Below, piece after piece: positions 4,384-58,484 of a stretch of DNA of 64,000 bases. The stretch's first letter is position 1. Every line of letters begins with the position of its first letter. Source of the DNA: Chara braunii (lineage: Eukaryota; Plantae; Charophyceae); NCBI GenBank assembly GCA_003427395.1, contig BFEA01000003.1:7661020-7725019 (forward strand), read 5' to 3'. Made by a program: the position numbers and the translations under genes. The notes beneath the pieces are model-generated. The model ran no database searches. It had not been told where the DNA came from and saw only the letters and a program-made list of their open reading frames with translations.

Positions 4384-5546
4384 TTAATGCTTGCCTGAGA
4401 GCGTAGAGTTCTCTGAAGGCATCCTGGCGGACATGAACTCTACGGGCCTATATCCATTGCCATCGTCTTGCTGTAGAACAGCACCTATGCCATACTGACT
4501 CGCGTCAGTGGTAACAACGAAAGGCAGGGACGGATCGGCTACCTTAAGGAATGGATATTCTATCAGGGCCCACTTTAATCTTTTCAGGGCAGCTGTGCAG
4601 TCCTTGTCCGACTTCCAGATTGCTTCTTTCTTTAGCAACCTGCGAAGGGGCGCAGCGATGGTAGAGAACTTCCTGACAAACTTCCTGTAATAATTACCTA
4701 GGCCTAGGAACGACCGCAACTCTGTCAGCGTGCGGGGCGTTGGCCAATCTCTAATCGCTGCAATCTTGCTATCTTCAGGTCTAACGCCGTCTCCGTCTAA
4801 GACGTGGCCGAAGTACAACACTTGTGTCTTGGCCCATTCGCACTTCTTTGCATTGATCTTGAAGTTAGTTTCTCTAAGTTTCTCCGATACCTGCCTCAGA
4901 TGGCCCTCATGCTCCTGGAGGGTCTTACTGAACACTAGAATATCCACTAGAATATCATCTAGATATACTACAACAAATCTATCTAACCACGGCCTAAACA
5001 AATCGTTCATACAGCGCTGGAAAGTCGCTGGCGCATTGGTTAGTCCAAAGGGCATAACTATAAACTCATAGTGCCCATATCTAGTCCGGAATGCTGTCTT
5101 ATACTGATCATCAGGATGAACCTCTATCTGATGATAGCCGGACTTTAAGTCTATCTTCGAGAAATACTTGCAGCCCTGCACCCGATCTAACAGATCATCT
5201 ATCTGGGGCAGTGGTTCTGCATTCTTCACTGTGATAGCATTGAGACCTCTATAGTCTATATACATTCCGAGCTCTCCCTCTTTCTTGGGGACAAAGAGAA
5301 CAGGTGCTCCAAATGGAGACGAACTGGGCCTAATCCAACCGTTCTCAAGGAGCTCGTCTAACTGCTTACGCAGCTCCTCTAGCTATCTTCGCGACATTCT
5401 GTAAATCGCTCCCTTAGGAGTCGTACTGCTAGGCTCTATCTCTATACAATGCTGGATCGACCGCGGCACTACTCCTGTAGGCGGCTTAACTAGATCTGTG
5501 TATTCTTCCAGCAGCTTGGCAATAGCAGGGTCTATGGGTCTCAGCT
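4384..5546 (-). pseudogene. Gypsy pol: reverse transcriptase and start of RNase H
   Basis: [52 protein letters not shown]; stops and frameshifts present. Confidence 0.95.
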
Positions 5547-6589
5547 GTTCGCGCGAATGTGAAGGGGCGCGAACACGTTCGCCATGCTACGCAGCATGCA
5601 AGAAAAGAACTGTTAGCTGTTCTTGGCCTTGACCACAAAGACCAGAAGGAAAAAGACGAAGTGACTCTTTTTGCCAATTTTTTATCTTCTTGGTCTGTTT
5701 GGTCTTTTTTGTTTCTGTGCCAGTGTATGGTCCTTTTGGTCTTTTGGGCAGTTTTTGTTTGTTTTGCAATTTTTTTTGTGGATTTTATTGCCTTGAATGT
5801 AGATTTACACATATTGAACTGGACTTCTGAAAGTAGTTTACAGAGGTTACAAGGCTGTCACCTGGAGAAGCCCATTGAAGGCTACTCTCAAGAGTCTCAA
5901 CGTTAAAATCCAAGATTTAGGTGGCTTGCCATTACGATGAACTAAGCTGTCTCCATCTACTCCGTGAAAATCATATGAAGTTTGCCTTAAACCAGTAGTA
6001 CCTTTCGCAGCCAAACTCGAAACACCAATTTTCCACAAACTGAATTCTTCGGGTTAAATTATTACTGGACCTCAATGGCTGACGCCGTGAGCTGAAAAAG
6101 AAAAAGAACGTTCAGCAAAGCTTGGCACACAGTTCTTTTCCACCTCGTAAAAAAGAACGGGTGATAGTGGCTCTTTAAACACATTATTTGGAGGGAGACG
6201 ACATGAAAATCATTTTCGAGTTACTCACCAGTGCCCATTTGCTGCTAATGTCTCCAATTCTGAAAGGCGTGAGAAAGTTATAACTTATAAGTGATTTTCA
6301 ATCCTCATCTATGTAGCCTTCCGGAGATTTTCACATTGCAATATGCTAGTGTACTAGGTGCCAGTGATACACAACTAACCTGTCCACATTGGCTGCAGCT
6401 CTTAATAGTCCCAGGGAGTTTGCTTTACGTCCCCACTATGTTGCAATTTGGCAACCCCTCATCTGCTCACAGTGCTTGATGATAACCGCTCTTTCTAAAT
6501 CCTGTTCGAATTCTTTGTTTTCTCTCCTCTACTCTTCTTATGCCAGGTACTGCTCATGACCTCCTCCTGGACTGCTTTGCTCCCGGTAT

Positions 6590-24900: not shown

Positions 24901-26605
24901 CGTAGGCTTTCTCAAAATGAAAGAAGAGAATTGTTGATGTGATCTTCTTGTGGTGGACTCGTTGAGGGCCATTACATTGTCTAAGATGAGTCTGTCTGGG
25001 ATAACCCTGTTTGGTCGAGGTGGAAGCAACCACTTGTGATACGATTGATTTGGGAGGCAAGGAGTTTGGCTAGAATTTTGTAGGATACATTTAGTAGGGA
25101 AATGGGTTTATAGTTTGCAATGCCCTCTTTATTACCTTTTTTGTAAAGGAGGGTTACGACTCCTGTGCTTAACGTTGGACCGAGGGATTCTTTTTCCCTG
25201 GCTCTATTGAGGAAGTCTAGGTAGAGGGGCCCAAGTTTGTGCCAACTTGCCATCCAAAATTCTTTGGAAAGGCCATCCTTGCCTAGTGCCTTGTTGGGTT
25301 TTAGGTCCTCGAGGGCTTAGAGTAGCTCTTCAGTTGTGATGGGAGCTTCCAATATGCTTGCTGTTTTCGTTGATAATGTATCGTTAGAAATTTGGCTCTT
25401 GCTCTTAGTGAATCGTTTTGTCTTCCTGCTGGAATCTTACTAGTATAGAAGTCTTTGTAGCTATATTAACTAACTGGGTTGTTTTTGAGGTGGGGTTGCG
25501 GTCTTTGGTGATTAGACTTTCTATAGAGTTCGTGGAGTTAGATTTGATTTTTTGGAAGTAGAATTTAGTCATTTTTTCGTTTAGTTCCCAGTCGTTCATT
25601 CTGGCCCTAAGTTGTAGTCCCCTGAGTTTTAGTTTTGTCCATTCTGTTAGTTCTTCTTTAGCCTTGGAATATATTTCTACGTAGAACTCTGAGTTGGTGT
25701 CCCTTTGGAGGTTTAATTCGGCTATTTCTATTGCGTTTTGTAGTGCTTCTACTCTTTCCTTCCTTTGGGATGCTAGTTTTCTTGATGCTATAGATACGTC
25801 GTTGCTGATGTTCTTTAGGATTTCTGGGAATCTGATGTATATATCCTCGTGTGGTTCGATCTTTGTCTGGGTGCATAGTATGTTTTCTAGGTCAATCTGA
25901 AAGGTTTGGCTAGTTAGGAGAGCAGTGTTGAAGCGAAAGAAGCTTTTACCTGTGTAGCCCGTTTTTGTGAGCCTGCGGGAGAGTGTGATTGCTTTGTGGT
26001 CTAGGCCTTTGTAGTAGGGATTGTCATGTATTTTGCAATCTAGTATGACGCTTGAAAGGGATTGCGAGGTAAGGAAGAAGTCTATTCTTGTGAGAGAGGT
26101 TCTACCGTGGGAGGTGTTTTTGACACAGGTAAAGCGTTTTGTGTTTGGTGCTAGGAGGCTGTAAGGGTGTAATACGTTTTTCCTTGTGATGAAGTCTCCA
26201 AGGTCTATGCCGTTAGACTGTGGTAAGGGGTCTTGTGAGTTGAAAATTCTATCGAAGGAGGGATCTCGTACCGATTTCCAATCCCCCATTAAGATGGTGT
26301 GTGTGTGGGTAGAGATTAGATGTTCCAAGGAGAGGAGGAAGGGTTTTTTTTCTTGTATGGCGTTCGGACCATATATCCCTAGGATGGCTATGTCTTCCTC
26401 TTTGAGTTTGATATCTGCCTTGACCCACCTGCCCGTTGCATTGTCCTGGCTTGTGGCTTGATTTGTTATGCTATCACTTGAGGATGAATTCTGATGGAAA
26501 AGGATGAGTGTCCCTGCAGAGCCATTCGGGGCCGCACTAGCCCAGACTGTGAATTTAACAAAATGCAATTTCCTCTGGACTGCAAGTTGGATTCTTTTGT
26601 GTTCC

Positions 26606-26671
26606 TCGAACCAACATCCATAACACGAAGATCAGAATCACCATCAAGAAAAAAAGATATCATGATGTAGG
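26606..26671 (-). pseudogene. cox2: Mitochondrial cox2 exon fragment (NUMT)
   Basis: Minus strand C CTA CAT CAT GAT ATC... = (D)LHHDIFFFLMVILIFVLWMLVR once one missing T in the T-run is allowed for. Confidence 0.9.
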
Positions 26672-27116
26672 ATAGGGGTCAGTGCAAAATGCCTGCCCTC
26701 AGAACCACACGTTACAGTTTCCCGTCATGCAGCTCGCCCCCTAAAACCTTAGCCTTGTTTGTGGGCTCGGGAAGGGAAGTTGACAAACAGCTTCGCTTCG
26801 CACCTTCCGACTCTTAATTGTTCGGAATCAATTTCACATGTAGCTAGAGTATTGATTTCCTGACCTTGCACTGTGCTCAGCAGACGCTTCGCGTCTGATC
26901 TGATGCCAGATAAGAGAATCGCAGATATCTGGAAAAAGGCTAGAGGTGTGTCTTGTCTAAGCTGAGCACGCTGAGCACTTCGTGCCTTCTACGACCTTAG
27001 TGAGCAATAAAACAAAATCATCTGCTGCCGTAAAATTTTTGTTCTGTCGAAGAACGACCTTGCTTTCGCATTTGTTTGTTTCTTGGAGATCCGCCAGCTC
27101 TGCGCCTCTTTCTTAT
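26672..27116 (-). other. 3' part of a mitochondrial group II intron (cox2i104 position), NUMT
   Basis: Domain V gagctgcatgacgggaaactgtaacgtgtggttc (~26702-26735) and domain VI ending acccctAT directly before the cox2 exon, splitting an Asp codon GA|C. Confidence 0.85.
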
Positions 27117-39615: not shown

Positions 39616-40207
39616 GATTTGTCTGGAGTGTTTGGCGGGCATGCGTAATGCCAGCCGTCGTGGCAGCTGTTGTGCTGAGAATGCTTAACACGGCTAGGTC
39701 ATCCATGTCAGCACCCACCTCATCCCTACCGTTCACGTCCTCTCTGTCGTCGAGGACAGGCACAGACTGACTCCTGAGTCTCCGCTTATCCTTCCCTATG
39801 TTCCCCTTCTTTATTCCCACACTCCCTGTGCTCCCCCTCTTTATTCCCACACTCGTTATTTTCCCTTTGTCTCCCTTCGGTCTTTCCTCCCTCTTTGTCC
39901 CCTCTCCCTTTATTCTGCCCTTTTTTGGTAGGGTGCAAGTGGGCCGTTATGATGACACGGGGACGTAGGCAGGTCACGCTCAACTACGCCAACTTGGCGA
40001 GCCTTGTACATGAAAGGAGAGGCACAAGGGCGTGTGGGCGGGCAGGAGTTTGGTCCTGTCCGTCGGTTAATTGATTGGATTGGCTGATCAGCATGTGTGA
40101 TGGCCGCATGAAAATGTGATATCCCATTCCCTGTTTTTCCTTGGTCGTCTTATGGTTTTGTTGGTTGGTTGGTTGGTTGGTTGGTTGTGGCTTGTGATGG
40201 GATGCAG

Positions 40208-40471
40208 GGTGGCACTTCCTATTGGAGTGAACATGATAAAAAAGAGACTGGAGGGAAACTACTATCGCAACGTGAATGCTTACAGACATGATGTCGAGCA
40301 AATCGAACGAAACAGCGTCCTGTATTACACGCCGACGAGCGTGGAAGTCCGAAAGGCGAAGGCGCTAGTGAAAAAGCTTTTGGAAAGAGTGGACTCATCG
40401 CCTGAAGGCAGGAGTGGAGGAGGCAGTCGAACAAGGCCGAGGACAATAGCCTCTCCTTCTGATGCTCATGG
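40208..40471 (+). CDS. Exon encoding the C-terminal half of a bromodomain (BRWD/PHIP-like)
   Basis: RVALPIGVNMIKKRLEGNYYRNVNAYRHDVEQIERNSVLYY...KAKAL; flanked by tgcag acceptor and gtaggt donor; open frame. Confidence 0.72.
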
Positions 40472-41520
40472 GTAGGTTGGGAGTGTGACGGTGGGAGCGT
40501 AACGGCACAAGATGAACGATACAGCACAGATTGATTGGGGAAGGCAGAGCATGTTTACTGTTTGATGGTGGGAAAACTTTGGATTCAATTTGAGATTCGG
40601 TTTTCGGACAGCATTTTCCGCATTGGGTGTTAACTGTCCATCATTCACTTGCTCACCGGGAGCAGCAGGCAGACAATGGGAGAAGCAGCTGAAGAATGAT
40701 GATGATGGCATCAGCCCTCGGGAGCTGGCGAAGGGAATGGAATGGAATATGTCTGTATATGGACATATGGACTATGAGGACGAGGGGCAGACTGGCTCAG
40801 CGATGTTTTTGAGAGATGTCAATGGCATTCACGTCGATCGGCTAAGTCCGCTGCCACGAATCTAGTCACATTGGACGCTGCGCGGAACGGAAAGTGTCGT
40901 ATTCTTTCAGGTGGTTGGAAGCATGCAGCGATCGATTGGGTGAATGGATGACGTTTGGGCTCGCCCTTCCGGGTGAGATTTAGTAATCGTTTGTTGCAGC
41001 AAGCCTTTGTTTAGTGAGCACACATCACCTTCATCATTTCCGGTCGACGTAACTGGGGGTGATATCTCTGTGCAGCAATGTGGAGATAGGATGGATGGAC
41101 TACATTTTGCATTATAATGTCGTATTCTGTTCTGTGGGTGGAATTGGAAATATGCAGTGATCACTCGATTGGGTGAATGGAACGGAGAGTGTTTGGGCCC
41201 CCCTTGGGTTTGGTTTGGGGTATAATGAGATTTACTAATCATTTGGCTGGCTGAGCAACTGCTTGCTTGAGTATTTGAGGACATGGCCTTCATTTCACGT
41301 ACTGATGTAACATCGGGAAAATCTATGTAGGGGCAGTGTGGAGATAGGACTTGCAGGCTGACAGTCAGGCTTGAGCATTTTTATGTCACTGTCATTATGT
41401 CACAACAACAACAACAGGAACAGAACATGTCGCCGAGGAGGGGACGTGAGTATATGTGAAATTGACAGAGAAACCTCGTTTGTGTGCTTCTTTCCTCTGC
41501 GTCTTTATGGTTTTTCCTCT

Positions 41521-41561
<41 letters not shown>

Positions 41562-42482
41562 TCTTTTTTAATCTTGTGTTTAATATCTTTGGAGGTGTGG
41601 ACTTGTTCAGGCCCTTTGTTTTTGATTAGCATGCAGCAAAATGCCTATCACAACAAATTTGGCTCGAGTTTTTCGAAAAGGATATTAGTTGGACAATTTT
41701 GCACAGTTCAACCAAAAAACCCAACCCCCCTTCCGGTCTCCGCAACTTGTGCGTTCTTCAACACTAGCAGCTGTAAACAGGACTCCTTTCCTGTGATCTC
41801 TTCTGTCCTCCCCATCCTTTCCAGATCTCTCCTCCTTATAGCACTTCTCACCTCCTTTGTGACTGGAAATGAAATGTGAGGGATAGAATATATTATATAT
41901 GCCAAAAGAGACCGCCAACAATTCAAAGAAAAAAAAAAAAAAACAATTCAACATTGGAGCTCATCAAGTTGGTCAACGACCGGAGCGGAAGTGAAAGGAA
42001 CATGTTTGTGTGTGTGGGGGCGTATGTGGGCGTGTTTGTGAGCATGTGTGTGCATGTGTCTTCTTCTGTTTTACTTCCATCTGAGTGGCATATTGAGTGG
42101 AAGGGTTGAGTGGTTTGGAGGAGAAGTTGCTGTACGCCATGATATTAATGCTCAAGCATGTGGGCGTGCGAACTTGTGTGTGTGTGTGTGTGTGTATGAG
42201 CATGTGCGCGTGTCAGAGAGAGATAGAGAGAGGGAGGGGGGGGGGAAGAGGAGAGACAGTCATCCATGTGCGGTAGCAAGTCTGCGATGTCAGTAATTCA
42301 ACGTGGAGGAGACACCCTACTGTAGATGGGATGACATAATAAGAGAGCAGTACCGCCGAGCGGGCAGTGTACGAAAACGTTGAGGGAGGTGCTGACATAG
42401 ACTTATATATAGGGCTTTTCGACGCCTTGCCTTTGTAAATGACAACATCGCTGTGAGCTCTTCACCTTTTGTTTTTTTTTGT

Positions 42483-42660
42483 GGATTTGCTACGCACAGC
42501 AGTTTCTCGGCCGGCGGAATTGGAATCAGACGGTAGCTGTGGAGTTTGTTTTCCAGATGGGAGTGTTGGCGCGGACTTGCTACGTACAGCAGTTTCTCAG
42601 CCGGCGGAATTGGAATCAGAGGGTTGCTGTGTGGAGTTAATTCACCAGATGGGAGTGTTT
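42483..42660. repeat. ~91-bp tandem duplication
   Basis: ga.ttgctacg.acagcagtttctc.gccggcggaattggaatcaga twice. Confidence 0.85.
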
Positions 42661-43836
42661 GCGTGCAACAATTTCTCCCCGCTTGGGAATCAGAAACAAT
42701 CTTCTTAGACAGCAGAAATGCACTGGCTGGATTGTATCGGTCATCCATTTCTCATTTCTCGGCGACGTTACAGATTGCCAAATGGACAAAGAAGGGCTGT
42801 TATTCAAATGGCCCTGTGACTCTTTTTGGGCGCTGACTCTTTTGGGTGGTGACTTTTTTGGGGGGTGACTCTTTTGGGGGGGTGGAGTAAGAAGCACACA
42901 GTATGGATCAGCAACGAAATGTCGCCACCAATGAGATCGGCGGTGACGTGGGAATGCAGCGATGGCAACGTGCGGGATTGCAATAAGGACGAGGATAACG
43001 ACGAAGATGGCGTGGGTGGCCGGATTATTATATACCGGAAAGCCCGAAACTCAAGTGTGGTTCGCCTATGTAGCAATCAAATTCAGGCGACTCGATTATT
43101 ATCATATAAGGCGATGTTGAGGACAGCGGCATCCAGTCATGCAACACAGTTGCTTGCAGGAAAAAGTGGAGGTGGTTACGAGGAGGGAAGGAAGAGAGGA
43201 GGGGGAGACGGAAGGGGGGAGATGGGATTGCTAGCTGCAATCTTTGGTATATTGTCGTACCGGACATGTATGAAAATTTGTCGAATCAAAAGGTTTGTGA
43301 TGCGTGTTAAAGTAGTTCTTCATTAGACGGCAATGCCAATGTAAGTCAACTGTATGACACAGAGGTGTTTCTGCCTGAGGAGCGCATAAACATCCGTCGT
43401 AACTTAGAATTTTTAGAATTTTTACTTATATTGTAAGTATAATAGACTATTAAAATAGTATTAATAGTATATGAGTTTACCAGCGTTTTTGGAACAAGGG
43501 CAGTCCGTGGAAGCCTAGGAAGAGAGAGAGAGAGAGAGAGCATGGTGGAAAGAGGAAATATCGAAGATGGGAGGGAATGGATTGTCATGAGATTTTTGAA
43601 TGGGATGGGATTTTATTATTTTATTATTTTTTTTATTTTTTTGTAAACAGAACCTTATGGCTCTGGCTCCTTTCCATTCTGGGGAGTGTCAGTCCGGTTC
43701 CTACTCCGCCGGGATGTTGTGCAACCTGCAAGGTGAAAATCTTTAGCCAACTCAAAGAAAGATTTTGAAACACAAGTGTCAGCTTAGCCGTCGTTGCTTC
43801 TCATTCTATTACAACCCAGTCTTCATGCTTGTTGAG

Positions 43837-43900
<64 letters not shown>

Positions 43901-44224
43901 NATCCAAAACCCAATCCAAACAGACTCCTCTTCAACCGATACCTAAAGTTCAGACCTGCCCCAGCACCCACATCAGGCTATCATATGGCAACGACCACCA
44001 GAGACAGGCTATACAGACAAAGAAGTATCAAGCTAGGGTTTAGGGTTTTAGCACCAAATACAGGATAAGACCAGATTACCAACATGGCCTCAGCCGTTTC
44101 CCTTATGGGATTCAAGGATTGTATCACAACCCCCTAACCCCCTCAGCGCCCACCATCCCCCCCGGTCTTTCCCACGAGCAGGAGGCCTCCCCAATGGGCA
44201 GTGAAGCTAGCCAGGGCGGCCATC

Positions 44225-44790
44225 GACATTCTCTCGCTCAATGTCAATGGATTGATCCATGCAAAAGCAGAAAAAAAAAAAAAACGCCATATGGAATATG
44301 TTAAAGAACCCAGTTAATGGGGGTTGGCCCGACGCAATGTGTGTTCAAGAGACCCACCTGCCCTCCCTCCTCCAAACTCAAATCGTCGACTGTTGACCAC
44401 GATGTGCAGCAAGGAAGGTGGGTTAGTCTTAAGGTGGCGTATGAAGAGGATAAATTTTACCTGGTCTCCGTATATGCGCCCAATGATTCAACACATAGAA
44501 TAGACCTTTGGCTCTCCCTTCTCCAATATCTACCGGACGATGCCCCGATAATAATAGCAGGTGACTTCAACACGATTCTTGACCCGTTAATGGATCGCAG
44601 ATCTGCTGGTCATCAGTCCAACCAGGCGACCCCGTCTCAGCCAAACCTAGGCCCTAATATACTCATTCTCAGACAACTAATGGCGGAGCGGAAACTAGAG
44701 GTAGTAGAGGATGTCTATAAACTACTGCATCCGAGCCGAAGAGCCTACACCTGCCTGTCATCTAGGGGAGAACAGGGTCTGACCAATTGA
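44225..44790 (+). pseudogene. LINE APE endonuclease fragment
   Basis: DILSLNVNGL, DAMCVQETHL, GRWV, VSVYAPND, IIAGDFN in shifting frames; no RT follows. Confidence 0.88.
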
Positions 44791-47147
44791 AACTCCGACG
44801 AAACAGTTTGTCACAGCCTCTCGTTTCTTGTACTCTTCTCCCTCTCCGCCTATGGTTTACCGGGCAGCTCTATTTGACTATATATACCACGACTTCGCTA
44901 TCACCCTGCTACGGTATTCTCCGGTTAGGTCGAGCGGCAGTGGTCGGGGCCATCACTACGCGACCATGTTGTGCCTCTAGTGCCAGCAGCGTGTCCGGAG
45001 TGTATTTTTTGGCTGTGACAGACCTTTCTTTATTTTGTGGTTGTTTTGCTTGCTGGTGATGGGGTGTGAACCGACAGTCTGTAGAGTTTTCCATCTGGTG
45101 TGGGTGAATGATAGTCTGCTTTGACTTTTGCCAAAGGTACCTTGAGGGCAGTGGTTGGTGCCCACCTCAGGGTATCAGTTGTCGGGCAGTCGTTGATGCT
45201 TAACTACAGCCGGGGTTAAGGTGGATTATCACTTACAATGTAATAAGTTAGGGGATTATACAAACTGTTGAGGGGTTGGCGGGACCAATGCAGTATTAGT
45301 AGTATTCCTCTTTTCTTCCCTTCGTCATGCGGCTTTACCTTTAATATTTGTGGTTATTATTTTTTATCTTTATTAGTATTAGTATTCTTATTATTTTCAA
45401 GTGGGGCCCGACACCGGTTTTAGGACCCGTGCGGACCTGCGTGCGTTCGGGATGCCAGCGTAGTTCCTCTATCCTGCCTGATCGAGAGGCTCAACATGCA
45501 TGCTGGCATGGGAGTCGGTTCCACGAGGAGGAAGAAACCAGGGTGGTTGGGCTCGCTGTGGGTGCAGTCCGTCGCCCACCATCTGCTGAAAGGGTGTGTG
45601 TGTATGAGCATGCCCGTTGAGAGGAGGATGAGGCCAACGAGGAGGGGCTGAACCTGGACAACATATCGTGTCGGGTGTATTTGGAGGCGAGCATGGAGGA
45701 AAACGAGTCTGGTCGGGGTGGAAGATCATTGATCTCGTTCGTTTCTTGACAGAAACAGACGAGTGAAAACTCGAATCGAGGGTTTTGGATCATGGCGACC
45801 CTGAATTTGCAATCAGGTGGGTATGAGAATTAATAGATTATGAGTTAGTAAAGAAAAGCACCGCGCAGAGTAACGACAAGGATGGATATGGCGAGGCGGT
45901 AAAACAAAGATTTCACTCGTTTCTTGATGAAATAGAGTGAAAGAAGATGATAGATCGGGGTTTTGAGGCGCTGCCAGCATCATGGCAGTGTCGGATTTGC
46001 CTTTAGGTTAGCAGTTTGGCCGGGATCAATACCGGAAATTGTGCCCAGGGGGAAGGCTCGAAAACGGCGATGTATTTTTCCTCGTTCTAGCGGAAATTTC
46101 TTTTTTTTTTTTTTTTTTTTTTTTCCTTATGTTTCTGCAAGCGAAGCAAAGCCAATTCCAGCGCATCGTCGTTTAGCATTGCGGCCACAGTCCTGACCCC
46201 GATGTTCATTGCCATGGTTGCCTTCGCTTTTACTGCCATGGTCATCTTCGTCATAGCGCCCTCTCGTCGTCGCTCTCTCGTTCGTTCGTACTGATGTTCG
46301 CGATCCTTTTGTTCCCGGGCAATCGCCATGCTTTTCGGTTTTATTCAGCACTCCCGATCTGCTCTGAGCAATACCGCTGTTTGAATCCGGACGTTAGTGC
46401 AACCAGGTACAGACTGCTGAGGGAAGTATCGCGTGCGTGCATGTATGACAAAGAGAGAGGAAGGGCTTCGTCACTCACCTTAAGTGTTGGCAATGCGGGA
46501 TGAGTGGAGAGTCGAGCGACGGTGTCAAGCCGCAACGAAACGAGGGGAAGTTTAGCAATGTATATGTCCCTGGTTCAGCAGAAGATTCGCTCCCATTTTG
46601 CACACTCGGTCAACATGATAGTCGGATCTACGTTTCGCCCGCAACTGGTTACTGTGGTCGACCACTGGCAGGGCCTTGCTGGTTCTATGGCACGTGATCA
46701 TCCCCTCAACCAGCAGGGTTGTCATCGACTCTCTGCTGGTGACCATCATGTTTGTGACTCTTGGTCACTGTACTTAGTTGTCTCTGAGGAGATTTCACTT
46801 GCTAACCACAGGGAAGTTGATGATGTTGAATTTCATGTGCAAGGGCTAATTATGATCAGCAGGGAGCAAGCCGAACCCTGTGCACATCCTCTTCAGGCCC
46901 ATTATGAGCAGAAGGCCACTACTGCGAAGAGAGGTGAGAAGAACAAAACAGAGAAAAGAGGATGCGGTTGCACCGTGGCCGCGAGTGTTGTTCATTACGG
47001 CGGCTGCGACTTGTTGAGGGAGCCGCTGGAATGGTGTTGTCATTGTCTTCAACTACGTGCGGATGTCCATTGACAGGGGATGTTGTCATGTTATTTGTGG
47101 ATTTTTGTTGAATCCTTGCTTACCTCTGCTTTATCATTGTTGCGACC

Positions 47148-47492
47148 GTTATTGAGGACCTACTGCTAGTTCCGGCCTGGGTGGACTAGGGGAGACCATC
47201 GCTGCAAAAGACTGTCATTTTGTTCTTTGCGGGCGTTGTTATTTGAGTTCATTAAGCACGTTGTTGCTCGAAGCTGGTGAAATTATTTTACCGCGCTCAT
47301 GGCTACTATGCTACTGCGGCCATTATTAAGGACCTACTGCTAGTTCCGGCCTTGGTGAACTAAGGGAGACTATTGCTACAAAAGACTATCACTTTGTTCT
47401 TTGTGGGCGCTGCTATTTGAGTTCATGAAGCAAGTTATTGTTGGAAGCTGGTGAATTTTTTTTACCGCGCTCGTGGCTACTATGCTACTGCG
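47148..47492. repeat. ~175-bp tandem duplication
   Basis: ttatt.aggacctactgctagttccggcct...ggctactatgctactgcg twice. Confidence 0.88.
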
Positions 47493-47559
47493 CCTGGCGT
47501 TGTATTGTCATGTGCACTATGGTGGACTGTTGTGATCAGCCTGCGTCCTGAATAGAGCT

Positions 47560-47569
47560 AGAGGGGGGA
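47560..47569 (+). other. Putative polypurine tract
   Basis: AGAGGGGGGA immediately followed by TGTTAAC. Confidence 0.55.
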
Positions 47570-50500
47570 TGTTAACTATTTGAACACAGACCCTTCTAGG
47601 CTGCGGTACCACGGTTTAGTCAAAGGTAGACGTAGTGTGGCCAAAGGAACGGTCGGACTTCGTACGGAGGCTATCATTGCGATTAGGAGACTTGTCACGG
47701 TGTTGTTGCACCGCGTTCGCGTCATGGCTTGACTGTCTTGCTGCGAATCTGGCCGCAATTGCGGGGCCCTCAGTCTCATCGAGGAATCAAGGTCCTCTCG
47801 CGCGAGTCTGAGTGCACCTCCCTCGTATCTGAGAGACTTAACGCTTCTACCTTCTGTCCTTCTTGCTCCAAGTCTGCTCTGTTGGTTCTGAGAAGAAGTC
47901 GGCAGGCGGGATTCAAACCCGTAATCTATGTCAATGCCTCTGTGGCAGGTTCGCCCCACCGATTGCGGGAGCTCTATCGAAACGTAACCGAGGTTCTGGA
48001 GGCAGGGAACTGAGTGGTAATCATCATCTCCTTCTATAAACCCAGCTAAAGCCCTTACATCTACATCTTTCTATGGTTTGACTGAGTATATTGTCTGCAC
48101 CTCTATTGATTTTATGTTTAACTTTCATGACTTAAACCAGACTTAAGTAAAGGAATGCATGTGCAATCTCAGTTTCATTTTTGTTGGTTGTTTTAACTCA
48201 GATTGAGAAAGGGTTTTGCATTGGGGGAAGGTGGGAGGAAGATAGTTTTGCTTGCGATTGTCTGCATCAACCAAAGGTTGGGCTTAGTTTCTAAGTTGAA
48301 TGGTCCAGCGGTATGTTTATTTTTGACTGCCTGAAGAACAAGACTTTGTTCCTAAGTTGGATGGTCTGGTTACTTTGGTTTGCAAGGGTTGCATGTGTTT
48401 GTTTTTTTCAGGGACTAAGTTTTGTTTCTAAGTTGAATAGCTTGGTCGCCTTGATTTATTTTGAGATTTTTTGAGTGAGACTGGGCTTTGTTTCTAAGTT
48501 GAATGACCCGGTCTTCTTATGTTTCTTTATTGTTTCTGAGAAATGGAGTTTTATTCCTAAGTTGGATGACTCGAACTTATTTTTGTTTATTCTGAGGGAA
48601 TCAGACGAAGAACCAGACTTAGTTTCTAAGTTGAATGATTTGGTCTGGAGCCACGTACATATAGGAACCAAAGAGTAAATTCTATTATTATCATACAATA
48701 ACAGGTTAGTCATACTTTGTTTCTAAGTTGAATGGTCTAACTATAGTTTATCACAATGAAGAGAGTGTCAAATAGTAATTGATGGTAAGATGGGGCATGC
48801 TGAACTTTGTTTCTAAGTTGAATGGTTCAGTCTTATGCAACTTCAAAAAACTAAGAGCAAAAAGATAGATATAACCTGACTACTTTAAACAGCTCAGGGC
48901 GACTAGGCATTGTTTCTAAGTTGAATGGCCTAATTATATGCCCAAAGAAGAGAAAAGCAGTAGTGACTTGTGTTTGTGTATATTCAATTAAAAAACTAAA
49001 CTTTGTTCTTAAGTTGAATGGTCTAGCTCTATGTCTTATGTAAGTTGGGTAAAAGGGATAAACCATTGAAAGATCTGAACTATTGTTGACAGGTTCAACC
49101 TTGGGACTGAGTGAGAGTACTTACCATTTCGGATTGGACTTGCATGGGGCTGAGTGAGAGTTTTGCGTAGTCTGAGTTTCATTTTGATAGGTAGTTGTTT
49201 TATTTGCTCGCCACGTGCTAGAGCTATTGGAGTTAGTTCAATTCCTGCACTTTGTCAGCTAACGTTTTTTACTTAGGTCAATTCTTGTATTTTCTAGATC
49301 ATTTATTTTACTTGGCTTTGTATAAATTTTGAAAAGCTACTTTCTCTACGTAGGAAGCGCTGCAAAAATTTATACAAAACCAAAGAGTTAGTCAAATTTT
49401 GGTTTTTCAAAGTTCAACTTTTGTCCAAGTTTTATATCTGTCTCGGTAAAAATCTGAATTTTTTTTTTTTTAAGAGAAACTGCTGCCTAATTTTTTGTTA
49501 ATTTAAGGATTTAGACAAAATTTGACTTTGAGAAGTCAGAATCATTTCAAATTTTGTATTTAGCTTTGTATGAATTTTGGAATAACACCTCTCTAGGGGA
49601 AGTGTTGCTGAAATTTCGACAAATCTCAGGAGTTAGTTACATTTGGTTTCGGCATGAACTCAAGTTTTGCTTTGAGATCTTATCTGGCTTAGTATAAATC
49701 TGGAAAGTCTACTTCTCTAAAGGAGATGTTGCCCAAATTTTTACTAATTCAGAAAGCTGGACAAAATTTGACTTTCTAGTATTGGGGATCATTTCAGTTT
49801 TCATATTTGAGCAAATATAAATACCGATAAGGTACTTTTTCCACAGGAAGCACTGTCGAAATTTTCTTAGTTTAGAACAGTTAGATTATATTCCGATAGG
49901 GAAGATTTTGGCGATCCACCTTGTATAGGGGAGATGCCGCAAAAAATCTTACTTTCCTTGGACACTTGCTTAGAGGTAAACTTAGACGTCCTTATGAGAC
50001 GATTCGAGTGAGGCATGATATGAAAGTTGTCCTCCTTATACTTCTAAGCTTAGTTGGGAATTGATCTGTCCTTTGTTACAGGTCCTCGTTGAGCATTTTG
50101 ATTCATGATTGGAACTAGATTCATCTTCATCCCACGAGGATCATCTTCTATTATCACTGATAGCAGGTCAGTTGTCGATTCGTCGATTTACGATTCAACT
50201 CCAATTCACTCTCGCTACTCGACCTAAATGTTTTAGCCCTGTGGTTTGAACTGTTTCGGTGGGGTTTTAAACCTCGACTTTATTTAATGACCATTTAACA
50301 AAGATACTGAGTATTTTATTATGAAAGCTTGGACACAGGTTGGGGCTTGTGTGGCTAAAGTGAGGGGTATGAGGGCAAAGAGTGGTTGAAGTTGACCCCT
50401 TGTAGTGCATGGACTTCTGGTTGAATCTTTGATTGCAGGCATGTGTGTGGTTCAGACTTTGGATTTGACTACCTGCGATCACATACATGTGGTTGAGGGG

Positions 50501-51612
50501 AGTTTCACTGTGATTCTGATAAGTAATTGTCTCGTATTTTAACCCTTCACACGTATATATCTGTGTATATATTTCACGTGTCAACGCGACCTATCGCGAA
50601 CGCGCGTGAGGGTTGAGCTGATTTTGCATTTGAGAGAAAGGGAGATTCTCCTTTTACCCCCTTTTTTGCTTTTTAGAATAATCATAGTTGGACGTTGAAG
50701 TCTGTGGCAGCTGTCAAAGTTAAACCCTTTGACTCTTCTTCAAACCCTAGATGATGGAGCTCATCTCCAGGGCGATAAAGTTTGACTTCCACAACAGGTA
50801 GAAGCTTGTGTACCACCCACTCTCTGTGAGGTGCAAAAGAGAGTGTGGTTTTTAACCGCCTTGGCGATTGTCCGACGCTGAGAGATTAACCCCTCAAGGC
50901 GCGTGTCAGTCGACACTTGTGTGTCGAACACGACCCTCGAGATCATCGAGGGCCATGCGATTATGGGTACTACGTAGTACTCCATCGTTGCGACTGATTA
51001 CATATGTGTGCATGGCTAGTCGATATAAGAAAGTTTTGCGTTAGCATGGTTTTATTAAGAGTTTCGTGTGTGACGCCGAACCGATTTTTGTGTCAAAAGG
51101 TTATGGGTTAGATACTAAAGGCACTAGGAGTGTTTTGTTTTGTGTGAGTGATCAGACTGTTTTTTTTTTGCATGGTGTAACGCGTGGTAAGAAGGATGCG
51201 TTCTAGTCGATCGACGACAAGTCGCGCTCAGGACTTCAACCCCCTAATGCGTCGGTTCACGTACGGGTCCGATAAAGGCGTGGGACCGCTCGTACCCCCA
51301 ATGCTACAGCGTATGAGAAACGCCCTCGGCTGGGTCAGCTCTGCGATTGCAACTAATTAGCTTTCGCGGGTGGTTCAGTAGCTCGGCAGGGAAACGCCCA
51401 CCTAAGGGATGGCGACAGCTCCCGCAAGTGGAGGTAGGTTGTACCTTGCGTGACCCTATTCTATCGTAGGGATTTGCGAGAGTTATGGCTGACGCACTCG
51501 GCCGGAGAGGCGACGAAAACTTCATTTGCACCGCGATAAAGGATGAAGTCTTGCCACAAATCCTGTCTGACGCGGCCGGAAGGTTCCCCCTACGAGACTG
51601 ATACGCTCAACA
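47570..51612 (+). mobile_element. Putative ~4-kb LTR (TGTT...AACA)
   Basis: Starts TGTT after a PPT-like tract. Ends ctcAACA exactly where similarity to the paralog 52706-55102 stops. Confidence 0.55.
48278..49026 (+). repeat. Array of 10 interspaced hairpin repeats (core TTTGTTTCTAAGTTGAATG)
   Basis: Loop motif at 48291, 48352, 48428, 48494, 48557, 48626, 48723, 48813, 48916, 49009; period 61-103 bp; dissimilar spacers. Confidence 0.92.
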
Positions 51613-52617
51613 TTGTCCCCTCCAAAAAGAAAAGAAAAGGAAAAAGAAATGGAAAATTACAACCCGTCCAGGTGAAAAGAAAAAAAAAAGACGCAAACTT
51701 TTATTTTTTTAGTGCGTAGATTGGGTCGGATACGTAGCTGTAATTATTATTCGAAGAAAGGTATGTGCAACCTTCGTGGTGGGTGATGGTTTAAGCAGGT
51801 GTACCATATATCCAAGGTTTATGACGATATATGTTAATATCAGTGTGTAGGAGCGCACTATCGGGTGAGGAGAAGCGGTTGTAGAAGGTTTTAAGACAAA
51901 TGTCAATGGGCTTATCGGTAGGTTGGGTAGGGAGTGTTTTGATCATAGGTCAGCATGTTACATGGCCCGTAGAAAGCAAAAAAAAAACAGAAATCTGACT
52001 AGATGGTCGGCTTTTTCAAGAAGGAAAAAAAAAAAAGGAAGACAGCAGTTCGCGCAGTTGAAAAGAAAAAAAAAAAAAGTAACCCAGACGGCCCGCTAAA
52101 GAGGGATCACATTGTAATGATAAAGGTTTTTTATGGGTTGCAGGGAGTTTAATAATTTGATTTAGCATTAAAAAAAAAAATGGGAGTGAAAATGACAAAC
52201 TTCGACAATGGTAGTTGGTGGGATTTTATTTGTTTCGATATGACTTGATAAGGGAATTGTGGGGCATATGGTGGAGTGGACGGTTGTGTTTTGTTGGAGG
52301 GACTATAGACTTGGTCATGGAGGTTGGAAAAAAGTCTCTTTGTATGAATGGATATCAACGTCTGTTGGGATGGGAGATCGAGGGTCTTTCCTCCCCGATT
52401 CGTTGCTTGGAGCCCCCACAAGCTCGTGGTGATTACAACCTTTCTTTGCATGTCGTATCATCGTAGTCGTTGGGTTGAAATTTTTAACTCGAGGGTGACA
52501 AGAAAGTTCTGTGTATTTTTTGTGAGCGTGAGCTGAGATTTTTTTATGGTTGTAGGTGATGATGTTTGGATCGATTTGGGTATGTGGGAAATTGTTTACC
52601 GGATTCATGCACGAATA

Positions 52618-52619
<2 letters not shown>

Positions 52620-52706
<87 letters not shown>
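52620..52706. repeat. (TG)n(AG)n microsatellite
   Basis: Direct reading. Confidence 0.95.
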
Positions 52707-52709
<3 letters not shown>

Positions 52710-55102
52710 TTAGTTCAATTTTTGCATTTAGAAGTTGAATTTATTCTTTATATTTGGCTTTTATAATTTTGGAAAGGCACCTTCGCTAGGAGGAATCGGT
52801 GCCCACATTTCTTCAAATCCAATGAATTAGTCAATTGCATTTTGGAGTTGAGTTTATTCTTTATATTTGGCTTTTATAATTTTGAAAAGGCACCTTCGCT
52901 AGGAGGAATCGGTGCCCACATTTCTCCAAATCCAAGGAATTAGTCAATTTCTTTTTTTACAAAATTTCAACTTTTGTCTAAGTTACATATTTGACTTAGT
53001 AAGAATATGGGAAACCTACTTTTCTAGAGGAAGTGTTGCCCAAGTTTTTGCTAAATCAAGGAGTTAGACAAAATTTAACTTTATGAAGTCAGAAATATCT
53101 CTAGAATTCATATTTAACTTTGTATAAATTTTTTGAAGACACTTTCTCGAGAGAGAGTATTACTGAAATTTCTACAAATCTAAGGAGTTCGTTGAATTTT
53201 GTCTTAGCAGAGTTCAAATTTTGTCTGTGAATTCATATCTAACTTAGTATAAATTTGGGAAACTTTTGTTTATGAACGGAATGCTGCCCAAAGTTGTACT
53301 AAATCAGAGTTGACTCTGTAAAGTCAAAATTTATTTTTTTAATTCATATTTAGTTTAGTATAAAATTTGAAAAGACACTTTCTCTAGAGGGAGTGTTGCC
53401 GAAAAAAATTCTAGTTTCAACAGTGAGTTATATTACACTTTGAAAAGAAAAACGTTGGCGATCCACCCTGTACAGGAGAGATGTTGTCAAAATAATCCCT
53501 GATCTTTGGCATCATATAAAGTTAAGTTTAGACTTAGTTTTGTGAGAGGTTGGAGTGAGACGTGATATGGGGGTTTATTCTTCATGCACTTAAAGTTAGT
53601 TTTAGAAACTGATCTGTGTTGTGTAACTTGTCTTCTTTGGTAATTTCGATTCACGACCTGACTAGTCCCTACCCGATCCTACGAGGATTGTCTTCAGTTA
53701 TCTTTCGATAAGAAGGTCGGTTTACGATTCAGCTTCAAACTCATTCTAACGTCTCAAGCTAAGGCCTTAATCCCTATGGGTTAAATTGTTTCTTGGGGTT
53801 TTTACTTTGACTTTTATTAAATGACCATTAAAAATGATTAACCAGTTTATTTGGGAGGGTTGGACAACGGTTGGGACTTGTGTGAATAAGGTATGGGGTG
53901 TGAGTGTCGAAAGCGGTTGAAGTTGACCCCGTGTTCGTGGTCTGTCGATGTTGAATCTTTGTTGTGATTGCACATATGTTTTGTGAGTTGAAGTCCTGAT
54001 CTGACATTGTTTGTGATCATTTGTATATTTCAAAGGGGGTCACAATATAATTGTGAGAATGATTGTTTCGTGTCCTATAACCTCGTTATATTTATATTTT
54101 GTGTATTCGCGTTGTCTATGTTGATCGTGCATAAGATTTAGCAGATTTGTATCAAGAAAAAAGGGAGATCCCCTTTTGCTTCTGGTTTTTAGAATTTTTA
54201 TAGTTGTGCATTGAGGTCCGTGGCAGCTGTCAAAGTCAAATCCCTCTACTTGTTTCCAGACCTCCGACGATGAAGCCCCGTTCTCAAAGTCAGCGGCGTT
54301 TGGTCGGCACTGAGGGCGGAAACCCGCCTACCACTCCTCTCCGCAGTGTGCAGAAGGGGGTAGGTCTCGTAATCGCACTTGCGATTGTCTAGCGTCGAGG
54401 GATTAACCCCTGAGGACACGTGTCAACCGACACTTGAGTGTACAAAGCGACCCTCAAAATCGTTGAGGACCGTATGATTATGGGTAATACATTGTACACC
54501 ATCCTCGGAATTGCTTGTGTAACCATGCATGGCTAGTCGATATGACAAGACCTATGTTGCCGTGATATTTATTCAGAGTTTTGCATGCGGCACTCTCTTA
54601 TTTATCTCGTTAAAACGTTATGGGTCGGATGTATAAAAAAAAATAGGTGCGAATTATGTATGGAGTTTGGTTTATTTTTGTGAAATATATCGCGTGGTTA
54701 GATGGACCGTTCTAGCCGACTGACGAAGAGTCGCGCTTTGGAGATCGTCCTCGAGAATGTCGGCTCGCATATGGGTCCAATTAAGGCGTTCGACCGCACA
54801 TACCCCCTATGTTTCAGCGAACGAGAAACGTCATCGCCTGGGGCACCTTTGCGATTGCACTCGAGCAACTTCCGAACGTGGTTCGGTAGCTCGGGGGGGA
54901 TACACCTGTCCAAAGGGTGGTGTCAGCCCCTTGGGCAAAGGTAAGTTTTTCCTCGCGCGACCTCTATCCTGCCGTATGGTTTCGCGAGAGGTATGGCTGG
55001 CGCACTCGGCCGGAGTGGCGAACGGTCCTTCGCGATAAGATCCTGCAAAATCTTACGTGATGCGGCCGGAAGCGTCCCCCTGCAGGACCGATGCGGTCGA
55101 CA
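52706..55102 (+). mobile_element. Diverged, 5'-truncated paralog of 49230-51612 (LTR-like)
   Basis: Collinear anchors: gagttagttcaatt, ttggcgatccacc, gtggcagctgtcaaagt, gattaacccct, catggctagtcgatat, gcggccggaag; ends gtcgACA. Confidence 0.8.
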
Positions 55103-56751
55103 ACGGTGATGCACAACCAAAACTCAAGGCTACAAATGCATCAACACCGCATGCACACTCAACACTGCGCAGCAGCAACATGCACAATAATAGCTGCAGT
55201 TAGCCTTCCAATCTTTAAGGTCGTCTCATCGGGTGTCAATCTTGCGGCAACCAAAAGTTTGCTACAACCCCCGTAGCTAGTTGCAGTGTGCTGAACAGAA
55301 ACAACCTACATAGGGTCACCAACAACACAATAACTATGAGCAATGAGTGGTAAGTGTACTTAGTTCTTCTGACCCTCCCTCCTTCTAGTCCCCTCTCGTG
55401 CTCGCCCTTTCATGCTCTTTTTTTGTAATTTCACTCCCCAACCAATTGTATCCAACCTCTATTGTGCCCATCTCCGAGCAAACAGCGGGGCGCGAGGGAG
55501 ACAACGACCGACAAACAATTATGTAGAAGATCATGATTTCAAATGAGGTCCAGTATCGAGTGTTAGGGACAAATACGCGCGATCATAAATCCGGCCAGCG
55601 TAGTAAACCATGCCCATGCAAATAACATAAGGACGGAAAAAAAAAAAGCTCGCGAGGACGAGCTAGAGTACGTGGCCTACGTATCACGCTCCACGACTCA
55701 CAAAAATAAAGGTGTTATACGAGAATGAATCTTTTGCTAGAACATGGGAAGATACACCATCAACCTTATATTTTACTTTACTGTATCTATATAGTCGGGC
55801 CTCGCTCCCACATTTGGTCAATTTCCACCTTTGTTCGTCCCTATCCATTGTTCCGCTCTCCTTCATTCCGCTCACTTACCCATATGAGCAGAGGGAAGCA
55901 ACGAGGAGCAACGCCAAAACTGCATTGGCGGCTACGAAGTTTAAGCCCAAAGGCAAGCTGCATCAAAATTGCAACCACGACCAATAAAAATACGTTGATC
56001 TTCAGGGATGAACATGATGACCATGATTAAACACGAGCAATAGGAATTCAGGATGGCGTATGAGTAGATGAGCAGTATCAAGACAAACACGATCACCCCT
56101 ATCACGATGACGACAGACGAGTAGCAGGAGCACGATCATGATAGCGACCATAAAGAAGAGCACGGGCACGGGGCGAGCAATAGCGGCTTCGCCCCACTAC
56201 TTGCCAAATATGAAAAATGAGAATGTATCCTCCGCTATAAAATGGAGAGATACATAGCTTCCTTTCATTTGTCGAAAGCGCTTTGCGCGGAGCCCATAGC
56301 ATCGACAACGGCCAACCCAAAGCCCCATTCGCAAATCTGGCGCGCTCAATCCACTCGCAACGCTTCGAAACCCAAGTTAATATGTTCCCTCACTCAAATC
56401 CACTGGGAGATGAGTGAGATCTACCCTTTTTCTGCCCCTCGATGCTCGTTTTCACCATGCCCGCGCGCAGCCTCCGTTGCTCATGCCTCCCAAACGAGCC
56501 CTTTAGACGTGATTCCGGGTCCGTCATTCAACTCACATTGCTTAGAAACCCTGGATTCGTATCTTTGCTTGCTCGATTCCATCAAGGAATGAGTGAGACA
56601 TCCATTTATTGGCCCCGCCATATCCATTTTCCCTCCTCATCGTTGACCCCTCCGCCTCTCTTCGTCTTCCTCCTTGTACTCTCCCCTGTCGGTCCCTCGT
56701 CGTAGCGCGCATTCTCACAACTGCGCTATAAATTGTTCAACACTTTCATCT

Positions 56752-57085
56752 ATCTTGAAGAAAATTGTGGAGGGAACCAACTACTAGATGCTTTGACTAG
56801 CCTTTCGCATCTATACCCAAGTCCGGCGAACACTTTCTACGTCAGTATCGTCGCCAGCCTCCACTAGAGTTTCCTTTGGCCTTGCCTTGCTCAGGCATAA
56901 CTCACAACCTTTCAGGCCCCAATGGGCTTGCTCACATTCATACCTCGCACAACAGATTGTGGGGTGGCGGACGATATATCGATAGTGGGCCCCCGCCACT
57001 CAAAAGTTTATTTTGCCTCGTGACCGGATCGCCTACCAGCTCGCATGCACTTTGACTCATCAGTTCACATTTCAAGATTGACGAG
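56752..57085 (-). pseudogene. Degenerate LSU (25S/28S) rRNA fragment
   Basis: Reverse complement of LSU motifs: ggagggaacca.ctactagatg, ctatacccaagtc, cgtcagtatcg, gcctccac.agagtttcct, gctcaggcata. Confidence 0.85.
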
Positions 57086-57153
57086 ATAAAGGAACTATGT
57101 CAGTGTCCCGAATGCGCAGGAGCCCCAACCGGCCCCCCCCCCCCCCCCCCCAC

Positions 57154-57192
<39 letters not shown>

Positions 57193-58484
57193 CCCTTGTT
57201 CAGGGTCCTTGACTGGTGTGACAGCTTCCCACAGGGCTTTTATCTATTGCCCATTGCAAAATCTCGCCAATGCAGCTCATGCCGGCCACCTCACGTCCAA
57301 CATAGATGGCGACGACCTCGACCTCACGTCCAACATAGATGGCAACGACCTCGAGATATCCTCGACCCTGGGCAATTCAGGATTGTAGCATTTCACTCAT
57401 ATGCTTTCATTGAGCTCAGGTCTGCAACGTATGAGGGGTATACCGACTGCATCGGGCCCATTTGTTTAGCAGCCAATCCCAGTACTGACACCGGTACCAT
57501 GCCCCAAATGGGATTGGTAATGGGCTAAAAGGAGTGAAAAATAAAAATAAAATAATAAGAAAACGACACTTAGTGGGAGGGGAAAATAGCTGGCACCCCC
57601 TTGGTCCTGTCAATCGGATCCGCTGTCGGGACCCGCGACAAAACCAAAAGGGGATAGCCCCGCCAGACCTTCAACTCCTCGGTTTAAGCTTCATCGCTCC
57701 ATCGTCGTCAACCACTGGCCTCGACCGCCAAACCTGCCTGATGAAAGTCCAACAGCGTAACCAATAGTACTAAGCCCAAGGTTGAGATTCAACCCTCGCT
57801 AATTTCTATATGAACGGGTTTCACCCCGTATGCTGCCCCACTAACACACCCCAAGACCAGATCTTGGCGTACCGCCTAGACTTGCGTCTACCTCTTCTTC
57901 ACACATGTTGAGCGAAAGTCCTGGTCTTACTCACCGCCCGCCGTACGCGCCATCCATCACACCAAGGTCGTGCTTTCACCACTTTAGTTATGAAAGTTCA
58001 ACCTTTCTTTGGGCAAACCCCATTCGTGCATGCCTTTACCGAGGCTGCGAAAATCCTCTCTCCCACAGGCAACCCCTATGCGGTCCCCAAAGTCCCTTCA
58101 TTTAAAACAAAGATAAGCACTTGAGAAATATTTGTGGCACCGGCGGTCAAGCCTGATGCCGACCATAGGAATGCCGCCACCGAGCGCGCACACGCGCCAC
58201 AAAACGACGTATCAATCAAAGGAAAAAAACACTTCGCCTTAATTCAATCAAAAGCAAATAAAGTTTACCGACAAATGTGCCGGTTTTGTAACGTCAACAA
58301 GAAAAATCACGCGCGCCTCAAAACTGCGCGCCCACGCATTCTCTATTTTTCCTTTGAACCCACAGTGGGTCACAAATAGAAAACTGGCCGCAACTCACGT
58401 GGTGCACCCAATCCCGAATCCAAATTCATTTATGTCACTTATAAAAACCAAGGTGGATACCCATGTAAGGGTATTAGCACAGAT

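Follow-up and report, generated by a model that had tools for sequence, protein, structure and literature searches.

An array of ten covarying hairpins in a high-copy repeat of the Chara braunii genome

Repeated short hairpins with a constant part and variable stems are known from several systems. The bacterial REP/BIME sequences are short hairpins, constant in one part and covarying in their stems, which are found in tandem arrays, reach high copy numbers and are mobilised by RAYT transposases. Five iron-responsive elements are present in the 3' untranslated region of the transferrin-receptor transcript, as repeated hairpins in which the loop and bulge are conserved and the paired stems vary. 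In the A-repeat of Xist, a conserved core of ~25 nt recurs about 8 times with U-rich spacers of varying length in between, and this GC-rich core is thought to pair between repeats. Here we describe an array of ten hairpins from the charophycean alga Chara braunii. It is located in a stretch of 64,000 nucleotides (contig BFEA01000003.1 of assembly GCA_003427395.1, positions 7,661,020 to 7,725,019 of the forward strand), which is referred to as the window and to which all positions refer.

The array shares with REP/BIME the covarying tandem hairpins and the high copy number, but REP/BIME are prokaryotic and no sequence relationship between the two was seen. Like the iron-responsive elements, its hairpins are irregularly spaced and combine a conserved loop and bulge with free stems. 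They differ in loop sequence, no known binding protein was identified for them, they are part of a mobile repeat and not of a host mRNA, and their RNA form is putative. The U-rich spacers of variable length in the Xist A-repeat are reminiscent of those of units 1–5 of the array; Xist is, however, a long non-coding RNA of a mammalian host and has a GC-rich core.

Among transposons, the nearest parallel is Mothra, a non-autonomous Helitron of rice that is described as high-copy, with two blocs of tandem repeats and sub-types differing in the order and number of those repeats (PMC4683698). Mothra and the array family are alike in being high-copy, non-coding and a few kb long. Both are built largely from two distinct blocs, each with at least about six direct repeats and one of them AT-rich, and both have copies that vary in the number and order of their units. 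Mothra differs in having mapped TC...CTAG ends and a 16-bp 3' hairpin, whereas the ends of the array family are unmapped and no hairpin followed by CTRR is present near its depth boundaries. In the passages of PMC4683698 consulted, the repeats of Mothra are not described as covarying hairpins.

A preliminary description of this DNA, made from its letters alone, called the array CRISPR-like while holding that it was not a true CRISPR, and with the latter we agree. CRISPR arrays are likewise partly palindromic direct repeats with non-repeat spacers. In the present array, by contrast, the stems vary, the spacers are 28–70 nt long and the whole array is multi-copy. Only a 19-nt core is conserved (mean pairwise identity 0.90, compared with 0.47 in the outer stem arms) and the periods run from 61 to 103, which is not the pattern of near-identical repeats at regular spacing. 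The spacers have high depth in genomic DNA. The scanned open reading frames (ORFs) have no cas-like domains and encode only retroelement domains, and the genome is eukaryotic, with a reverse transcriptase (RT) 81–90% identical to Chara braunii proteins.

Is the array the result of selection on the hairpin? Or, has a mutational process kept its arms paired? We hold, with moderate confidence, that the ten repeats may well be multiple copies of a cis-acting hairpin that is under selection in a mobile element and is bound by a protein of the machinery that propagates the element.

Structure of the array and covariation of its stems

A pattern search for the 19-nt core with 0–3 mismatches returned exactly 10 matches between 48284 and 49020, all on the + strand. 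The chance expectation was 0.02 matches, and none of 100 shuffles reached 10. The cores start at 48284, 48345, 48421, 48487, 48550, 48619, 48716, 48806, 48909 and 49002. The resulting spacings of 61, 76, 66, 63, 69, 97, 90, 103 and 93 are those already given in the preliminary description. Modulo 3 these are 1, 1, 0, 0, 0, 1, 0, 1 and 0. A protein-coding repeat was ruled out, as the unit spacings are out of frame and the ORFs in 47576–55987 have no credible Pfam match.

The structure was derived with RNAalifold from the ungapped alignment of ten 43-nt blocks. Each core is the centre of a hairpin of ~33 nt (block columns 6–38). The outer helix of 7–8 bp pairs columns 6–13 with 31–38. It is followed by a conserved, asymmetric internal loop with 4 nt on the 5' side and 1 nt on the 3' side, an inner helix of 3 bp (18-29, 19-28 and 20-27) and an apical loop of six bases, UAAGUU. 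When the units were folded singly as + strand RNA, the outer helix was the minimum free energy (MFE) fold in seven of the ten; the exceptions are units 5 and 7, for which other folds are favoured, and unit 10, which is weak. Unit 7 is the weakest of all in its outer pairs, as had been noticed before (Table 1).

A covariance model of the kind that had been proposed was made from the ten 43-nt blocks and run unfiltered on both strands of the whole 64 kb. It matched the ten units and nothing else (49.2–56.8 bits), the next best score being 16.2 bits (E 0.084). Other searches did not recognise the array. Tandem Repeats Finder did not call it, and no Rfam 15 family matches it at the gathering score. 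At E of at most 1, the sole Rfam match over 43500–56000 was SgrS (16.1 bits, E 0.78), which was taken as chance. The two-unit pattern has 0 matches in metagenome contigs and 0 in viral contigs. A single 21-mer was found at 4 metagenome and 2 prokaryote-genome loci, as one isolated match each with no array, and these were also taken as chance. A search of an open-access collection of papers gave no account of a comparable array, either from Chara or from transposons.

The arms that flank the cores differ between units and yet are complementary, as first reported. In the structure of the preliminary description, 92 of 100 pair cells are standard pairs. No column shuffle out of 500 gave as many, and in controls with the 3' partners displaced by 1–3 columns the share was 20–52%. 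All six of its outer-stem pairs have changes on both sides. In the RNAalifold structure there are 11 pairs, 8 of which have double-sided changes. Pair 9-35 is A-U in six units and G-C in four, and pair 11-33 is A-U in five, G-C in four and G-U in one; neither has a broken cell. The inner stem had also been said to vary while keeping its pairing. In the register proposed at the time (GTTT/GAAT around a 7-nt loop) the changes are one-sided and none of the four pairs is compensated. The claim survives in the register of RNAalifold, in which units 2 and 5 have a genuine switch from U-A to C-G.

In a permutation test the 3' arms were exchanged among units. Watson-Crick pairs numbered 54 with a unit's own arms, compared with a permuted mean of 36.8 (sd 4.0; p = 2e-5), and with wobble pairs included the figures were 69 and 60.6 (p = 4e-5). 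Overall, the tests of own against swapped arms gave p of about 2e-5 to 9e-5. The three central pairs have seven different combinations in the nine regular units (unit 7 omitted), so the covariation is not a by-product of recent unit duplication. Mean pairwise identity in the immediate flanks is 0.38, lower even than in the outer arms. With compensatory changes that keep the pairing around a far better conserved core, the multimerised stem-loop of the preliminary description is upheld.

Could the 19-nt core instead be a site in double-stranded DNA for a transcription factor, an insulator protein or a transposase? Transposon-borne arrays of protein sites are well known, including the Su(Hw) sites of gypsy and the TnpA motifs of En/Spm. 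A conserved core, a single orientation and irregular spacing would all suit duplex sites, as would the position of the array, about 460 nt inside the left edge of a high-copy segment. Such sites, however, give no reason for flanking arms to covary, nor for the private mutations of the window copy to break pairs relative to the majority of copies. In addition, palindromic duplex sites conserve their arms and vary their centre, which is the reverse of what is found here. This explanation is unlikely.

The repeat segment and its genomic copies

The array is contained in a repeat segment of ~3.7 kb. The contigs of one DNA run were placed on 40001–58000 at a likeness of at least 95%, and their summed word depth, which is not a copy number, was 1928–8204 over 47801–52000 and about 9–12 in unique regions, a contrast of at least 100-fold. 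The unique contigs break off at 47817 and start again at 51478. Across the family, word depth is 30- to 5000-fold above the unique flanks. No credible ORF was found within the segment.

The class of element to which this segment belongs was considered from its ends. The best left/right scores were 22 for inverted and 20 for direct terminal repeats, whereas shuffled sequence gave 20 on average and 29 at most. A DNA transposon with terminal inverted repeats and subterminal repeats was rejected, as the terminal inverted repeats were not found. The segment agrees with Helitrons in having neither terminal inverted nor terminal direct repeats. No Helitron-type stem of at least 6 bp followed by CTRR was found near either depth boundary, these boundaries not being mapped termini. 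The preliminary description had placed the array in a putative giant long terminal repeat (LTR). This has no support in the window, where no near-identical second copy and no terminal direct or inverted repeat were found and the single relative, at 67% identity, has no array. The segment may be a solo LTR, the exact ends being unmapped.

The spacers divide the array into two halves. Spacers 1–5 are rich in T (39–57%) and resemble one another weakly (z up to 4.6); in blastn, units 1–5 align over 90–131 nt, spacers included, with 69–74% identity. Spacers 6–9 are A-rich (37–43% A) with no mutual likeness (z -1.3 to 1.2), and units 6–10 can be aligned over the hairpin alone. The left half therefore looks like a decayed ~65-nt tandem repeat, and repetition in the right half can be recognised in the hairpins alone. 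The dissimilarity of the spacers, reported for the whole array, needs correction for spacers 1–5.

Two DNA runs were placed on the array at a likeness of at least 85%. The highest depth covers unit 9 (Table 1) and ~70 nt beyond it. Depth is about 50000 just past unit 10, about 13000 over unit 8, 730–2900 over units 1–7 and 320–850 in the long spacers, compared with about 10–12 in the unique flanks. The spacers had been called unique, which is right only in part: they are repeated genome-wide along with the array and hence are not acquired sequences. Contig joints that skip or repeat units are frequent at this likeness (15 listed and 236 more), and six of those listed at 95% or more are within the array. 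The joints skip 73–652 nt or step back inside the array. One of them ties 48248 directly to 48901, as in copies that keep the last two hairpins only. Genomic copies thus differ in unit number, and those with two hairpins appear to be the most frequent.

Relatives with the loop CCATGGC, seen as loose ends at 48916 and 49016, keep the TTC/GAA inner stem; this loop contains a 6-nt palindrome, CCATGG.

The majority sequence of the family was compared with the window copy at 14 positions inside the ten 43-nt blocks, among the 40 variants listed of 204; one listed position, 48798, is a minority variant and was not counted. At nine of the 14 the majority improves pairing. A mismatch becomes a Watson-Crick pair in four cases (8-36 of unit 2, 12-32 of unit 6, 7-37 of unit 9 and 19-28 of unit 10) and a wobble becomes a Watson-Crick pair in two (8-36 of units 3 and 4). 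The stem is extended in three (3-41 of unit 4, and 5-39 of units 6 and 9). With the majority bases at 48933 and 48935, the stem of unit 9 consists of 8 bp, all Watson-Crick. Two differences bring back the core consensus (48439 and 48553), the former also turning the U-A of unit 3 at 13-31 into U.G. At one position an extension pair goes from Watson-Crick to wobble. In two further cases the majority base makes no difference, and no pair of the fitted structure is lost. The hairpins of the family majority therefore pair better than those of the window copy, which is expected if active copies are under selection while the window copy decays.

The main alternative to selection is a neutral palindromic minisatellite, or variable number of tandem repeats (VNTR), within a transposon, the arms of which are kept paired by template switching within a strand during replication, with no selected function. 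The units are indeed head to tail and variable in number among genomic copies, as in a minisatellite, and the alignment of units 1–5 across their spacers is of the kind that this explanation would lead one to expect. According to PMC8794818, template switching both creates hairpins and maintains them. It does not explain 90% identity of the core amid the saturated spacers 6–9, or why deviations of the window copy from the core at 48439 and 48553 are consensus in the family majority. According to PMC8604942, switching between arms also inverts the spacer of a hairpin, yet all ten loops share one orientation. Moreover, the compensated pairs are scattered singly and not in contiguous copied tracts. 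We consider neutral maintenance by template switching to be rather doubtful, while treating it as the foremost rival.

Table 1. Hairpin units of the array and the repeat features that surround them (window positions; pairs are numbered by block column)
Feature	Position	Strand	Remarks
Hairpin unit 1	48277..48309	+	51.3 bits; outer pairs 8/8
Hairpin unit 2	48338..48370	+	56.0 bits; inner pair 19-28 is C-G (compensated); family majority C at 48340 turns the A.G cell 8-36 into C-G
Hairpin unit 3	48414..48446	+	49.9 bits; 8-36 becomes C-G with the majority T>C at 48416; core G is regained with the majority A>G at 48439
Hairpin unit 4	48480..48512	+	56.8 bits; stem reaches about 11 bp; majority at 48510 and 48515 turns two G.U cells into Watson-Crick pairs
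Hairpin unit 5	48543..48575	+	51.1 bits; inner pair 19-28 is C-G; single-sequence MFE favours another fold
Hairpin unit 6	48612..48644	+	49.6 bits; majority at 48611 and 48638 turns two A.C cells into G-C
Hairpin unit 7	48709..48741	+	51.1 bits; weakest, outer pairs 6/8; shifted pairing register
Hairpin unit 8	48799..48831	+	56.7 bits; outer pairs 8/8
Hairpin unit 9	48902..48934	+	54.5 bits; most abundant unit type in the genome; DNA word depth 43573-59712 vs ~10-12 in unique flanks
Hairpin unit 10	48995..49027	+	49.2 bits; majority C>T at 49008 re-forms pair 19-28
High-copy, ORF-free repeat segment holding the array	47817..51513		Ends are where unique assembly contigs stop and start, not mapped termini; no Pfam match on ORFs
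Second internal block of decayed ~120/245-nt tandem repeats	49200..49950	+	CT/AG-rich palindrome in every unit
Diverged relative of the element's right 2.3 kb	52861..55102	+	67% identity to 49306-51612; microsatellites and 113-nt repeats at its start

Strand, transcription and possible role

The preliminary description took the many G-U pairs as a sign of a structured plus-strand RNA. In the variable part of the outer stem (columns 6–12, 70 cells) there are 7 G.U, 6 A.C and 4 other mismatches, so transition intermediates are equal on both strands. This balance is what the DNA-level process of the minisatellite explanation predicts. The summed raw MFE is lower on the + strand, which is G+T-rich (-97.5 kcal/mol, compared with -62.9 on the - strand). 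The mean folding z-scores against dinucleotide shuffles are equal, at -1.67 (+) and -1.56 (-), and the raw advantage is therefore compositional. The argument from G-U pairs thus falls away. The sole hint of the + strand is U.G at 13-31, present in eight of the ten units, and the two bases there may be conserved yet unpaired. The hairpin would act as RNA or as single-stranded DNA; the wobble and folding data do not separate strand or molecule.

A near-invariant core, stems that are varied but paired, saturated spacers and decay relative to the family majority together are what a nucleic-acid hairpin under selection usually shows. As the array belongs to a transposon family, such selection would most simply be for propagation of the element. 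Everything beyond a hairpin under selection is inferred. The contrast between core, stem and spacer would then reflect selection on the lineage of transposing copies. The conserved internal loop and apical loop could form the surface recognised by a protein, and multimerisation might raise avidity. On a more tentative level, it is possible that an element of a streptophyte alga has evolved a multivalent hairpin scaffold, expanded to ten copies from an ancestor with two hairpins. The scaffold would recruit many copies of one protein for packaging, for transport or for protection of a single strand during transposition, and would represent an undescribed class of transposon cis element. A natural scaffold of this type can be likened to the engineered MS2-type arrays.

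Several observations weigh against a selected, protein-bound hairpin. The search turned up no partner protein or autonomous element. All of the covariation comes from paralogous units of one locus and from per-site majority calls. The folding z-scores of single hairpins are modest (-0.4 to -2.9), and a global fold of the array retains five of the ten hairpins. Other copies carry CCATGGC in place of CTAAGTT, so that the apical loop is not invariant family-wide. Neither the wobble counts nor the folding z-scores show a strand preference. Lastly, no dedicated transcript of the array was seen in three RNA libraries (X5, X6 and X7), which are oligo-dT only, an absence that would also suit a minisatellite. 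At a likeness of at least 95%, RNA depth over the array is 0 in X5 and X7 and 0.64/0.22 in X6; at 85% or more there are 355 reads in X6 and 3 in X7. A search across sequencing runs listed no RNA run with a match.

The libraries are stranded, as is evident from an expressed gene at 40001–43600 that is covered solely by pairs with the first mate on the - strand. The array reads of X6 run in both directions (60:40), with the larger share from minus-strand RNA, and track the DNA copy depth per bin (Spearman 0.80). At 85% likeness or more, there is no pile-up of read ends over the array in the RNA libraries. This pattern fits diffuse read-through or DNA carry-over rather than a dedicated transcript. 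An array RNA that is non-polyadenylated or tissue-restricted may exist, and would be compatible with libraries made with oligo-dT only. The CCATGGC variant of the loop was also seen among X6 RNA reads.

These data bear on a further alternative, that the locus is a host non-coding RNA gene or a cluster of small-RNA precursors processed into hairpin or spacer RNAs. The preliminary description had likewise suggested processing sites that release spacer RNAs, for which the lack of read-end pile-up gives no support. The only features that would favour a precursor cluster are the regular hairpin-spacer layout and the T-runs after units 1–5. Stems of 7–11 bp are too short for Dicer-type precursors, and those of the array are in this range. 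The spacers are copied with the array and are not unique, the locus is one of very many near-identical copies, and there is essentially no RNA from it in the three libraries. A CRISPR-like cluster is further opposed by the eukaryotic host and by the ORF content described above. We regard a small-RNA or non-coding RNA gene here as highly improbable.

Blocks of tandem repeats within eukaryotic transposons are commonly dismissed as junk or regarded as the seeds of satellite DNA, and the array has the classical signature of a functional structured element. Should that signature be upheld, it would indicate that transposition in the Charophyceae, whose mobile elements are almost unstudied, needs a cis-acting hairpin, and would offer a ready natural pair of hairpin and protein to be sought. 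If, on the other hand, template switching keeps the stems paired, the array would illustrate that mutational process in a repeat family, as a clean natural case.

Other features of the window

The window is transposon-rich eukaryotic DNA. A Ty3-type RT, RNase H and integrase are encoded at 3230–5382 on the minus strand, and elsewhere there are RT fragments, a zf-RVT domain and a weak endonuclease match. The RT/RNase H fragment that is 81–90% identical to Chara braunii proteins has many such matches in that species; those in Closterium and land plants are near 50%.

Within the repeat segment, the second block and its counterpart (units of ~113–125 nt at 49200–49950 and 52707–53470, + strand) have palindromes in which the centre varies (CTAG, TACGTA, GTAC or CACAG) and which are still roughly palindromic. 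Pairing between the hairpin loop CUAAGUU and the motif RRCTTWGTA of this block was considered and dropped, since the partial complementarity is too weak and the complementary CTTAG is present in one of three units. The diverged relative at 52861–55102 contains no hairpin array, as judged by the lack of a covariance-model match. A T-arm-like stretch had been seen by eye on the minus strand near 47900–47990. It was dropped, as a tRNA/tmRNA search of the window found none.

Just upstream of the high-copy segment, in single-copy DNA, are two tandem copies of a 174-nt unit with 87% identity (47141–47492, +). Farther upstream, the repeat at 44788–45250 (+) has a summed DNA word depth of up to 216365, compared with about 10–12 in unique flanks. 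Other copies of this repeat are preceded by a string ending in CTGATGAGTCGG, which, joined to AAACTCCGACGAAAC of the window, would make a hammerhead-ribozyme core (CUGAUGA, helix II and GAAAC). The window copy is without the 5' half, and Rfam finds no hammerhead there. The repeat is transcribed in all three RNA libraries, and reads jump back by 99 (44886 to 44788), which would be expected of an RNA that is tandem or circular. The repeat resembles a plant retrozyme-type element.

The expressed host gene at 40001–43600 (+) includes a bromodomain-coding exon at 40101–40475 (Pfam E 8.6e-8) and has one-strand coverage in all three libraries. A match to a group II intron (Rfam, 43 bits, E 4e-5) is present at 26672–26737 (-), beside an ORF with RVT_1 (E 3.8e-14); ORFs nearby are at 23477–25069 and 25405–26631 (-). 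This region may be an organelle-derived or a nuclear group II intron-like insertion. Finally, an isolated fragment of 279 nt at 56777–57055 (-) matches eukaryotic large-subunit rRNA (122 bits, model positions 675–954) and has the DNA depth of unique sequence.

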